DNA from: a plasmid
Strand: one strand, 5' to 3'
Assembly (NCBI RefSeq): GCF_057098645.1
Contig: NZ_JBXSPU010000005.1
DNA: 4,285 bases
In this document: positions 1 to 3,805 of the stretch, piece after piece
How positions within the stretch are numbered: position 1 is the stretch's first letter
Layout of the letters: every line of letters starts with the position of its first letter
Position numbers and translations under genes: made by a program
The notes under the pieces: model-generated
Seen by the model: the letters and a program-made list of their open reading frames with translations, nothing else
What the model was told of the DNA's origin: nothing
Databases searched by the model: none

Positions 1-915
1 ATGAGCGCCGCGCTTCAATACTTCGAAGAAAATTTACCTCATCGTCCCTATCACACGGATGATCTCGCTTTCGGCCTTCGCATCTCCGGCAAAGGGCGCG
101 CTCTTCTTGCGCGGTACATCCAGCAGAACCAGCCTCATGCGCAGTTCTGGCTGGTTTTTGACGTTGACCGCGAGGGGGCAGCGATTGACTGGAGTGACCG
201 GAACGCTCCCGCGCCGAACATCACCGTAAAAAATCCTGTGAACGGTCATGCTCACCTGCTCTACGCGCTCAATATCGCCGTGAGAACCGCGCCGGACAGC
301 TCGGTTAAGGCGCTGAAATACGCCGCTGCGATTGAACGTTCGCTGTGTGAGAAACTTTGTGCTGATGTGAACTACAGCGGACTGATTTGTAAAAATCCGT
401 TCCACCTGGAATGGCAGGTGATGGAGTGGCGAGAGGAAGCCTATACCCTCGGTGAACTGGCTGATTATCTCGATTTGAGTGCCTCAGCGCGCCGTAGCAT
501 CGATAAACGTTACGGGATGGGGCGAAACTGCCACCTGTTCGAAATGACGCGCAAATGGGCTTACAGGGCGATTCGTCAGGGCTGGCCAGCATTCTCACAG
601 TGGCTTGATGCCGTGATTCAGCGTGTCGAAATGTACAACGCATCGCTTCCCGTTCCGCTTTCTCCGGCTGAATGTCGGGCTATTGGCAAGAGTATTGCGA
701 AATACACGCACAGGAACTTCACGCCGGAAACTTTCGCACAGTATGTGGCTGATACGCACACGCCAGAAATTCAGGCTACACGCGGTCGCAAGGGCGGTTC
801 TAAGTCTAAGCGCGGCACAGTAGCTACATCAGCACGCACGCTGAAACCTTGGGAGAAATTAGGGATCAGTCGCGCCTGGTATTACCAACTGAAAAAACGA
901 GGTCTCGTAGAGTAG
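1..915 (+). CDS. rep: ColE2-family plasmid replication initiator Rep (origin-specific, primase-type initiator)
   Basis: Uninterrupted 304-codon ORF from ATG at 1 to TAG at 913-915. The translation resembles, from memory, Rep of ColE2/ColE3-type plasmids (about 300 aa), for example WSDRNAPAPNITVKNPVNGHAHLLYAL, NYSGLICKNP and RQGWPAFSQWLDAVIQRVEMYNASLPVPLSPAECRAIGKSIAKYTHR. A ColE2-like origin sequence follows the stop directly, as in that family. The start coincides with the window edge, so upstream signals cannot be checked here. Not verified by search. Confidence 0.88.
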   Translation: MSAALQYFEENLPHRPYHTDDLAFGLRISGKGRALLARYIQQNQPHAQFWLVFDVDREGAAIDWSDRNAPAPNITVKNPVNGHAHLLYALNIAVRTAPDSSVKALKYAAAIERSLCEKLCADVNYSGLICKNPFHLEWQVMEWREEAYTLGELADYLDLSASARRSIDKRYGMGRNCHLFEMTRKWAYRAIRQGWPAFSQWLDAVIQRVEMYNASLPVPLSPAECRAIGKSIAKYTHRNFTPETFAQYVADTHTPEIQATRGRKGGSKSKRGTVATSARTLKPWEKLGISRAWYYQLKKRGLVE

Positions 916-1140: not shown

Positions 1141-1407
1141 CTACGGTTTCGCAGGTGGTTTGGGTAGCTTCTCCAGCTCGTTAATCAGCGGTTGTATCCG
1201 GTTCACATCGGCCTGTCTTGTGACTTCCTTTCGCAGGAACTGGAGCAGGAACGCACGCAGTTGCGCCTCTTCCGGCCTCCGTACCCTCGCCAGCATGGCA
1301 GCCCCCACAATGACTTTTTGCGCCGTGTCCAGGCTCCGGCTCTTCGCCTTCAGGCGCTGCAATCTGGCCTCAGTTTCGGCAATCTTCTGTTCGAGTGTTC
1401 TGCTCAT
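1141..1407 (-). CDS. mobC: Mobilization accessory protein MobC (RSF1010 MobC-like)
   Basis: 88-codon ORF on the minus strand with ATG at complement of 1405-1407 and stop at complement of 1141-1143. GGAG Shine-Dalgarno at complement of 1415-1418 with a 7-nt spacer. An N-terminal coiled-coil-like segment (LEQKIAETEARLQRLKAKSR) is followed by DTAQKVIVGAAMLARV, matching the conserved core of RSF1010 MobC as I recall it (ETRRKVLVGAMILAKV). It is divergent from mobA with an oriT-like sequence between them, as in RSF1010. Confidence 0.8.
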   Translation of the reverse strand: MSRTLEQKIAETEARLQRLKAKSRSLDTAQKVIVGAAMLARVRRPEEAQLRAFLLQFLRKEVTRQADVNRIQPLINELEKLPKPPAKP

Positions 1408-1585: not shown

Positions 1586-3805
1586 ATGGCGATTTATCAT
1601 CTCAGCATGAAAATCATTTCGCGAAAAAACGGCTACAGTGCCGTTGCTTCTGCTGCCTACCGTTCCGGCTCTGTCATACCCGATGACCGTACCGGATTAA
1701 TCCACGATTACACCCGTAAACGCGGCGTTGATGATGCGGTCATTCTCACCCCTGCGAATGCACCGTCCTGGTGTGGTGACCGTTCCGTTCTCTGGAATGC
1801 GGTCGAGAAAGCCGAACAGCGCCGGAACTCCCAGCTGGCAAGGGAGATTGAACTCGCCATTCCCCGTGAGATTTCCCGCGAGGCCGCACGGGAGGCCGTT
1901 CTCGCTTTTGTCCGGGAAAACTTTGTCAGTCGGGGCATGATTGCCGATGTGGCGTTCCATCATATGGACCGGACCAACCCCCATGCACACATCATGCTGA
2001 CCACGAGAGCTGTCGGGGAAACGGGATTCGCAGGAAAGGTCAGGGACTGGAACGACCGGGCACTCGCCGAGACGTGGCGCGCATCATGGGCTGACCATGC
2101 GAACAGAGCGCTTGCGAACGCCGGCTACCAGGAAGAGATAGACCATCGTTCATACGAGCGTCAGGGACTGGAGAAAGCGCCGGGCCTTCACCTCGGAAAG
2201 GCTGCCTGTGCGATGGAAAAACGGGGCATGGAAACAGAACGCGGTGAGCAGAACCGCCTGATTAACAGCCTTAACCTGGAAATACAGGTTTCCCGCACAA
2301 GGCTGGCAGTCATCCAGGTACAGGAGAACGTGCGGAAACGGGAACTCAGCGATGCCGCACGTCGTGCAGCGGAAGCCCTTAATCTGACCATTCCCGCCGC
2401 GAATGCCTCAGCGGATACCCTGCGGGAATTCATTGCCACACTGCCGCAGGAATGCGGGAACGCATGGGAGATGACACCGGAGTTCGTGGCGATGAACGGG
2501 AAGGCAAACGACATCAAACGTGAGGGGAATGCGCTGGTGAAAGAGCGGGATATTCTCGAAAAAGAGATGACCGGACTCAGAAAAGCCCGTCCGGTAGCGT
2601 CCATCCTGTCAGAGCTTCCCCTGATGACATGGGCTGAACCGGAATACCGCAAAAGACAACTCCGCTTCTGGAAACTCGAGAAACAGATTGAATCTCTTCT
2701 CCGCACCTACAGGGCCGTGAAAGAACGGGACATTCCCGTCCGTCGTCAGGCCTTTGAAACGCAGTGGAATACGTGGATTTCGCCGGGAATGGCAGAGCTG
2801 AAAGAAAAACTGTCAGCACGGGAAGCGGAGCGGCGCAGGGAGGAAGCCGAAGCGGAAGCGCGCCGGAAGGAACAGGAATATGACGCACGGCTGAAACACC
2901 ATGATAACCATCGCCTGAGCCGAGAAACGGCATTAGCCGGGGTTATTACGGAGCTGGGGCGTGCCAGAGAGCCGGGAACGGGCAGGATAACCCGCTACAT
3001 GATGCTGAGTAACAGAGCCGGAGAATTCACGGTATGGGGTGATGAGCTGGCGCATTACCCCCAGAGTGTTCATGACCCGGTGAATGTTTACCTGTCGCCA
3101 GGCGGGGCTGTGATGGTCTCGGATATACGTGAGGGAATGCCAGAATCTCATGAGACGATGGCGCGGCCTGAGCGTGTGAGAATGTATTCCGGTGCGACGG
3201 TCCGGCATGTACTGGAACAGATGCGCCAGGGGTGGCCCTCTTACGGTTTTCCGGCGCTGCCGCATCACTGGCCGGATAATTTTTATTTCAGCGACGACCG
3301 CAGGCCCGCAGCCTCTCCGCTGCCGTCAGCGCACCGGGTGGACGTCACCGCTTATGCGGCACCGGAGCAACTCATGCCCGTTGTCTTTTCGACAGAGCGA
3401 AACAGCAGGACGCTGAATCTGCTGTTGTGCGAAGGGCCGGAGGAAATGCTTGTCGGTTTTGTGCGCCTGGAGGACGAGCTGCGTCCCGTTCTTGCGCTTC
3501 CGTCGCCGGATTACAGTCATCTGATGGTAAGCATCATCACAGAGAACGGGATACACCTGGCAGGCTACGGTGAGGCCATAAACCGTGATGCTGATACTCC
3601 GTACCCACCGGAACCGAAGCTGATGCAGTTCAGGCTTAAGGGCTGTCAGGACACGCTTTTTGCTGCCATCAACAAACCGGAAGAGATGCCGGATTATCTC
3701 TTCCGTCAACTCGGATTTAATCAGACCTGGCATGAATGGAAGCGGGACGAACAGCACAGGCAACAACAACGACGCCCCGGACATTACCGGGGCATGAGTA
3801 TGTGA
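1586..3805 (+). CDS. mobA: Mobilization relaxase MobA (MobA/MobL family, MOBQ), with a long C-terminal region of unrecognised function
   Basis: Frame is open from GTG 1499 to TGA 3803-3805. I place the start at ATG 1586 because the product then begins MAIYHLSMKIISR, the canonical N-terminus of MOBQ relaxases (RSF1010 MobA begins MAIYHLTAKTGSR). Catalytic Tyr25 is at codon 1658-1660 and the histidine-triad motif HHMDRTNPHAHIM at residues 125-137 (about 1958-1996). WADHANRALANAGYQEEIDHRSYERQG also matches RSF1010 MobA (WADHANRALERAGHDARIDHRTLEAQG). No strong Shine-Dalgarno precedes 1586, so the start is not exact. Residues from about 240 to 740 have no motif I recognise. Confidence 0.9.
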   Translation: MAIYHLSMKIISRKNGYSAVASAAYRSGSVIPDDRTGLIHDYTRKRGVDDAVILTPANAPSWCGDRSVLWNAVEKAEQRRNSQLAREIELAIPREISREAAREAVLAFVRENFVSRGMIADVAFHHMDRTNPHAHIMLTTRAVGETGFAGKVRDWNDRALAETWRASWADHANRALANAGYQEEIDHRSYERQGLEKAPGLHLGKAACAMEKRGMETERGEQNRLINSLNLEIQVSRTRLAVIQVQENVRKRELSDAARRAAEALNLTIPAANASADTLREFIATLPQECGNAWEMTPEFVAMNGKANDIKREGNALVKERDILEKEMTGLRKARPVASILSELPLMTWAEPEYRKRQLRFWKLEKQIESLLRTYRAVKERDIPVRRQAFETQWNTWISPGMAELKEKLSAREAERRREEAEAEARRKEQEYDARLKHHDNHRLSRETALAGVITELGRAREPGTGRITRYMMLSNRAGEFTVWGDELAHYPQSVHDPVNVYLSPGGAVMVSDIREGMPESHETMARPERVRMYSGATVRHVLEQMRQGWPSYGFPALPHHWPDNFYFSDDRRPAASPLPSAHRVDVTAYAAPEQLMPVVFSTERNSRTLNLLLCEGPEEMLVGFVRLEDELRPVLALPSPDYSHLMVSIITENGIHLAGYGEAINRDADTPYPPEPKLMQFRLKGCQDTLFAAINKPEEMPDYLFRQLGFNQTWHEWKRDEQHRQQQRRPGHYRGMSM

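Follow-up and report, generated by a model that had tools for sequence, protein, structure and literature searches.

In-frame deletions at a purine-rich segment encoding a probable charged linker in the relaxase gene mobA of small enterobacterial plasmids

The DNA considered here, 4285 bases long and called the window throughout, forms the backbone of a small enterobacterial plasmid of ColE2-like type, with three genes: the replication gene rep, a small divergent mobilisation gene, and mobA, which encodes a relaxase (Table 1). Inside mobA lies a short, purine-rich and repetitive stretch that encodes the charged peptide EAERRREEAEAEARRKEQE, and rare in-frame deletions recur at this site in related plasmids. 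Colicin E2/E9-type plasmids and cryptic plasmids of E. coli, Shigella and Salmonella are 94-99% identical to the window. In a RefSeq plasmid that is 98% identical to the window, these three genes are the only ones annotated, mobA being labelled mobQ.

This label, together with matches to relaxase profiles, shows that the name mobA, given to the gene in an initial annotation made from the sequence alone, is correct. Residues 18-213 of MobA match the Pfam family MobA_MobL (PF03389; E=2.3e-70, 237 bits against a cutoff of 26.7), and the protein scores 260.9 bits with the NCBIfam MobQ equivalog NF041496 (cutoff 200); the N-terminal relaxase domain is hence above the curated cutoff for membership in MobQ / MobA_MobL. 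Structures matched in the PDB are 4HT4 (NES, E=8.5e-30) and 2NS6 (MobA, E=1.6e-9). In the passages retrieved from Garcillan-Barcia et al. 2019 (PMC6856555), the catalytic residues of MOBQ4 relaxases are given as Y25, E87, E89, H125, H133 and H135, and all six columns are invariant in the alignment of MobA relatives. These positions, and a backbone of rep, mobC and mobA akin to that of ColE2-like colicin plasmids, assign MobA to MOBQ4 as the group is delineated in those passages. The MOBQ4 elements described there (MobA of ColE9-J type, MOBQ42) have in common with the window the ColE2-like rep, mobC, mobA backbone, and the C-terminal part of their relaxase is related to Sog-like proteins, as in the window MobA. 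The window differs from colicin plasmids of MOBQ4 type in being a 4.3-kb cryptic derivative without the colicin operon. Neither a charged linker nor a linker length polymorphism is described in the passages retrieved from PMC6856555.

A purine-rich, low-complexity repeat had been noted at this point of mobA, and analysis of composition confirms it at positions 2821-2878. The segment of 58 nucleotides (nt) starting at 2821 has the highest purine content of all 4285 bases (79%, the mean being 52%), and the minimum of 3-mer entropy of the whole window falls at 2821-2878. The charged peptide said to be encoded by the repeat is the one found on translation in the mobA frame. The description of the repeat as made of GAAGCGGA-like units is loosely right, but the real unit is a 27-nt imperfect duplication, accompanied by microhomologies of 5-8 nt, and not an array of GAAGCGGA units. 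Tandem Repeats Finder detected on the stretch only a weak GGAAGC array (3.2 copies, 2842-2860, 84% matches, score 31). The identity found in the 27-nt register (22/30) exceeds that of sequences in which the order of the 19 codons was shuffled (P=0.006), and the exact 8-nt repeats correspond to the chance yield of the E/A/R codon set (codon-order shuffles, P=0.48). The architecture of the stretch is accordingly that of an imperfect duplication, and not of a short tandem array. An antisense open reading frame (ORF) of 118 amino acids (aa), located at 2577-2933 on the minus strand, overlaps the stretch; it stays open across it because a plus strand free of T gives no stop codons on the minus strand.

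Table 1. Genes, repeats and deletion junctions in the 4285-base window (positions count from the first base of the window)
Feature	Position	Strand	Remarks
rep	1-915		Pfam Replicase + PriCT_1
Small divergent mobilisation gene	1141-1407	-	ORF
mobA (MobQ/MOBQ4 relaxase, 739 aa)	1586..3805	+	ORF, ATG at 1586; holds the purine-rich stretch
Longest T-free, purine-rich run of the window	2814..2878	+	65 nt
Coding stretch of the charged linker EAERRREEAEAEARRKEQE	2822..2878	+	MobA residues 413-431; translation in mobA frame
Copy 1 of the 27-nt (9-codon) imperfect direct repeat	2822..2848	+	EAERRREEA; lost in type A deletion (L002, L006, L005)
Copy 2 of the 27-nt imperfect direct repeat	2849..2875	+	EAEARRKEQ; 70% identical to copy 1
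Type A deletion, 27 nt, copy 1 removed	2822..2829 and 2849..2856	+	8-nt repeat GAAGCGGA; L002, L006, L005
Type B deletion, 27 nt, same register, other crossover	2841..2845 and 2868..2872	+	5-nt repeat AGGAA; L001, L004
Type C deletion, 33 nt	2821..2827 and 2854..2860	+	7-nt repeat GGAAGCG; L003
GGAAGCG copies	644-650(-), 1083-1089, 2821-2827, 2854-2860, 3495-3501(-), 3738-3744

At the protein level, the stretch is the most charged 20-residue segment of MobA (75%), and is comprised in the longest run of the protein free of hydrophobic residues (residues 410-431, 22 positions). Pairs of opposite charges spaced i+3/i+4 number 14, against 8.9 expected from shuffles (P about 0.02). AlphaFold predicts a continuous helix of 86 residues (352-437), followed by a beta-rich domain from residue 450; over the stretch the predicted local distance difference test score (pLDDT) is about 71-73. 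Linkers of the ER/K type, or single alpha-helix (SAH) linkers, are continuous helices rich in E, R and K, which lack hydrophobic core positions and are held by i/i+4 salt bridges. The MobA stretch resembles these for richness in E, R, K and A, for the absence of hydrophobic core positions, for the excess of opposite-charge pairs and for the predicted helix joining two regions, and differs from them because only about 22 residues long and rich in alanine and arginine.

The region following the stretch was compared by an exhaustive HMMER search with residues 240-739. MobA residues ~440-733 are homologous to the C-terminal end of proteins of 1000-1400 aa, and in these (P0122, P0128, P0129, P0155, P0161) the C-terminal domain is preceded by a long P/A/T/S-rich linker; in a MobA relative of 615 aa (P0143) it is preceded by an E/R/Q-rich run. 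According to the retrieved passages of PMC6856555, the C-terminal part of MobA shows low homology to SogL primases, and the 1000-1400-aa homologues are presumably the Sog-like primases mentioned there. Searches of Pfam and NCBIfam returned no named family for the C-terminal half of MobA (window ~2900-3800). A further relative of 824 aa (P0121) aligns through its residues 1-521 to residues 8-532 of the window MobA, and again through its residues 508-822 to residues 414-733, an arrangement that points to duplication or rearrangement of a segment downstream of the linker. The stretch is best read as an interdomain spacer, which in this lineage would be a charged helix.

Whether the stretch varies in length among related plasmids depends on the collection surveyed. 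A query of 241 nt across the stretch matched, in Basic Local Alignment Search Tool (BLAST) searches, 109 PLSDB and 128 RefSeq E. coli plasmid records; all the full-coverage matches sampled span exactly 241 nt, down to 76% identity. A query corresponding to a deletion allele found a gap-free match in 0 of 107 PLSDB and 0 of 125 RefSeq E. coli full-coverage records. Metagenome contigs were scanned with a gapped pattern tolerating changes from -33 to +27 nt, and all 17 matches (17/17) had the reference length. The invariance that finished plasmids alone suggest would have been a wrong conclusion. Among 48 relatives at least 85% identical, which come from a far larger set of proteins, P0038-P0042 (five proteins of 730 aa) miss 9 residues within the stretch, and P0043 (728 aa) misses 11. 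The length comparison among relatives proposed in the initial annotation thus reveals six distinct MobA proteins with in-frame deletions. Of the 8 insertion/deletion (indel) alleles counted in this set, 6 fall inside these 19 residues, and only two elsewhere in the protein. Expansions of the stretch were found neither in the 48 proteins nor in the PLSDB, RefSeq E. coli or metagenome matches.

The DNA of all six deletion alleles, which come from six different runs or assemblies, was aligned. The junctions are of three types, all located exactly between short direct repeats, one copy of which is retained (Table 1). In-silico deletions made at these repeats in the window sequence yield exactly, over the whole simulated allele of ~75 nt, the alleles L002/L006, L001 and L003. 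L004 has the type B junction of L001 plus one single-nucleotide polymorphism, and in L005 the type A junction lies beside P0044-like flanking substitutions. Endpoints at direct repeats, retention of one repeat copy and recurrence of the junctions are among the marks of a slippage site, and these three are found here. The slipped-strand length variation predicted for the repeat is therefore supported by six deletion proteins and by the position of their junctions, but it is rare and consists of deletions only.

Recurrence was evaluated by counting nucleotide differences across mobA outside the stretch. L006 (type A) is 1 nt from the full-length L007, but 6 nt from L002, also of type A; L002 (type A) and L004 (type B) are 1 nt apart, and L001 and L004, both of type B, are 46 nt apart. 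At least five independent deletion events are the simplest account of these distances. The small number of changes separating deletion alleles from full-length relatives indicates that the former are young. Alternatively, each deletion type may have arisen once, and spread by recombination between related plasmids, with no mutational hotspot involved. The mosaic structure of mobA modules, the P0044-like flanks found next to the type A junction in L005, and the occurrence of the same mobA on different replicons are in line with such a history. However, three junctions lie within 40 nt, while just two further indel alleles of this set fall in the other 2.2 kb of the gene, and the pair L002 and L004 implies that the same background was struck by two different deletions. 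A single origin of each type is therefore regarded as unlikely.

A sister lineage, ~55% identical and assigned to MOBQ41 by likeness to the small cryptic plasmids treated in the retrieved passages of PMC6856555, also varies in length at this point. Among the proteins listed, the linker measures 26 residues in 27 proteins and 30 in 43, and the two classes differ by a 12-nt indel (RRAE, 4 residues) located in the homologous charged stretch. The charged peptide is kept in the sister lineage, and the T-free repetitive DNA is not. This common indel indicates that linker length does vary, and adds to the length variation predicted for the linker.

The deletions could also be artefacts of assembly, of the polymerase chain reaction or of sequencing, the stretch being in truth invariant in length. 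Every finished plasmid and metagenome contig examined has the reference length, and the deletion alleles derive from draft or Logan assemblies, which speaks for an artefact. Assemblers work with k-mers far longer than 5-8 nt, and collapse should not occur at repeats of this size; those shared at the junctions are only 5-8 nt long. Moreover, the alleles come from independent runs or assemblies, two of the proteins (P0038 and P0039) are present in both NCBI and Logan sources, the deletions are all in frame and precisely at direct repeats, and the 12-nt indel is common in the sister lineage. We consider an artefactual origin very improbable.

The data are explained, with good probability, by a charged helical spacer encoded by DNA which is rich in repeats, because made of few codons and marked by an old duplication, and which undergoes rare in-frame deletions by slippage. 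Residues ~410-431 (E/R/K/A) would form an alanine-rich charged spacer that ends the long helix just before the beta-rich C-terminal domain. The peptide is specified by a very small set of codons (GAA/GAG, GCG/GCC, CGN/AGG, AAG) and contains the old imperfect duplication of 9 codons; codon set and duplication together explain why the DNA is rich in purines, lacks T and abounds in direct repeats of 5-8 nt, at distances of 27 or 33 nt. We infer that these repeats may misalign during plasmid replication, by slipped-strand or microhomology-mediated deletion, and that 27 or 33 nt would be removed in frame, the products being MobA proteins 9 or 11 residues shorter. A hairpin assisting misalignment was looked for in the stretch and not found, the strand folding no better than shuffles (z=+0.75). 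Since deletions recur while their alleles stay rare and young, spacer length would be under weak to moderate constraint, and weak purifying selection on it probably eliminates the shortened alleles.

The classic deletion hotspots of lacI, studied by Farabaugh and by Albertini and colleagues, reportedly arise when replication slippage deletes DNA between short direct repeats. The MobA junctions are similar to hotspots of this type, as 5-8-nt repeats lie tens of nt apart, one copy is retained, and the events recur. They differ because the MobA case is deduced from natural alleles, and not from measured mutation rates, and because no hairpin intervenes.

A few points weigh against this explanation. 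The six deletion alleles were all found in draft short-read assemblies, and none in a finished plasmid; all of them are moreover hosted by one plasmid type, with aminotransferase/MFS cargo, and recombination between co-resident plasmids could account for part of their spread across backgrounds. The AlphaFold model is mediocre (mean pLDDT 63, predicted template modelling score 0.35, alignment of 30 sequences), and the helical role suggested for the linker is based on this model and on composition. A charged run of 22 residues is also short for a classical ER/K single alpha-helix.

Repetitive coding DNA that changes length by slippage recalls the simple-sequence contingency loci, and it may be imagined that selection keeps the repeat in order that linker length, and hence mobilisation efficiency or helper specificity, can vary. 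In-frame changes are recurrent in mobA, and the sister lineage has two common length classes, as would be expected of such a tuning locus. Unlike contingency loci, which contain many perfect short units, the MobA stretch features only two imperfect 27-nt copies, and changes are in frame, rare and restricted to deletions, with no on/off switching. The only tandem array detected in it is the weak one of 3.2 GGAAGC units, and frequent gain or loss of units was not seen in the plasmid records, metagenome matches and 48 close relatives surveyed. The variants account for well under a few percent, are young and only a few nt from full-length relatives, expansions were not seen, and the exact repeats have just the length to be expected from the codon set. 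Selection for variability is thus very doubtful; the stretch is a minor deletion hotspot, and not a phase-variable locus.

The purine tract might alternatively act as DNA or RNA, as a protein-binding site, a triplex, an internal Shine-Dalgarno-like pause site (GGAGG, 2839-2843) or some other structure, the encoded peptide being secondary. Besides GGAGG, this hypothesis may appeal to the 7-mer GGAAGCG, of which the window has 6 copies where 1.06 would be expected, a number reached in 0 of 200 shuffles. The excess is probably meaningless, since the 7-mer was picked once the data were known, and two of its copies are inside the stretch itself. The strand, as said, folds no better than shuffles; the tract is 79% purine, and not a pure mirror repeat; the sister lineage retains the peptide and not the DNA; and alleles devoid of half of the tract exist. 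A role of the tract as nucleic acid is, on this evidence, extremely unlikely. Translation starting internally after GGAGG was ruled out, as the run has no T and the closest ATG, at 2880, lies in another frame, where it begins an ORF of 4 codons. The similarity of the repeat to the segment 1077-1089, reported in the initial annotation as a probable coincidence, proved to be one: the two share one 7-mer (GGAAGCG), and a search with the 13-mer, tolerating at most 3 mismatches, gives 4 matches where 1.9 are expected, a value reached in 16 of 200 shuffles.

Other changes in length and other repeats were met in mobA and in its surroundings. One of the two His codons located seven residues past the stretch (HH, 2897-2902, MobA residues 438-439) is gone in P0037 (738 aa), which is the sole other small indel among close relatives. 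An 18-nt direct repeat, GTGAAAGARCGGGAYATT, is present at 2537-2554 and 2717-2734, with a spacing of 180 nt, and encodes VKERDI at MobA residues 318-323 and 378-383. P0045 (679 aa) misses exactly the 60 residues between the two VKERDI copies, and would be, as judged from the protein, a second slippage-type deletion in mobA. Tandem Repeats Finder also detected a weak repeat of GCGCCTTTTTG (1.9 copies) at 942-962, directly past the rep stop codon, and one with a 12-nt unit (2.4 copies) at 1232-1260, within the small mobilisation gene.

The genetic surroundings of mobA vary. L007 carries, on a plasmid of ~6.65 kb (L007:1-5220), a mobA gene whose product is 95% identical to that of the window; L001-L006, the source of all six deletion alleles, belong to this plasmid type too. 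L007 and L008 feature a Rep3-type replication gene and an aminotransferase, and rep of the window is of ColE2 type; an aminotransferase and an MFS transporter are found alongside mobA in L001-L006. The presence of the same mobA on Rep3-type and ColE2-type replicons indicates that the mob module moved between replicons. In a metagenome contig of 11.4 kb (L016) the mobA region occurs twice, at 3682-3794 and 7802-7914, 4120 nt apart; the probable cause is a plasmid multimer, or a circular contig whose assembly ran past its end.

Linker length could be imagined to serve as a molecular ruler, with the relaxase/helical part on one side and the Sog-like C-terminal domain on the other. The recurrent deletions of 9 and 11 residues, and the 4-residue indel of MOBQ41, would then have been selected because they adjust mobilisation efficiency, cis-acting behaviour or specificity for the helper plasmid (coupling protein), a view to which we assign very little probability. 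The loss of 9-11 residues leaves the reading frame uninterrupted, and these losses, combined with the domain boundary seen in homologues, mark residues ~410-437 as a natural site at which the relaxase and its Sog-like C-terminal domain could be split or engineered. The phenomenon is an ordinary one, a low-complexity charged linker in a well-known relaxase gene, and raises no new biological question. Its practical consequences are small, and the plasmids concerned are the very common small enterobacterial ones; typing and annotation pipelines should expect MobA proteins of 739, 730 and 728 aa, and of 715 and 719 aa in the sister lineage, as natural alleles and not as errors.

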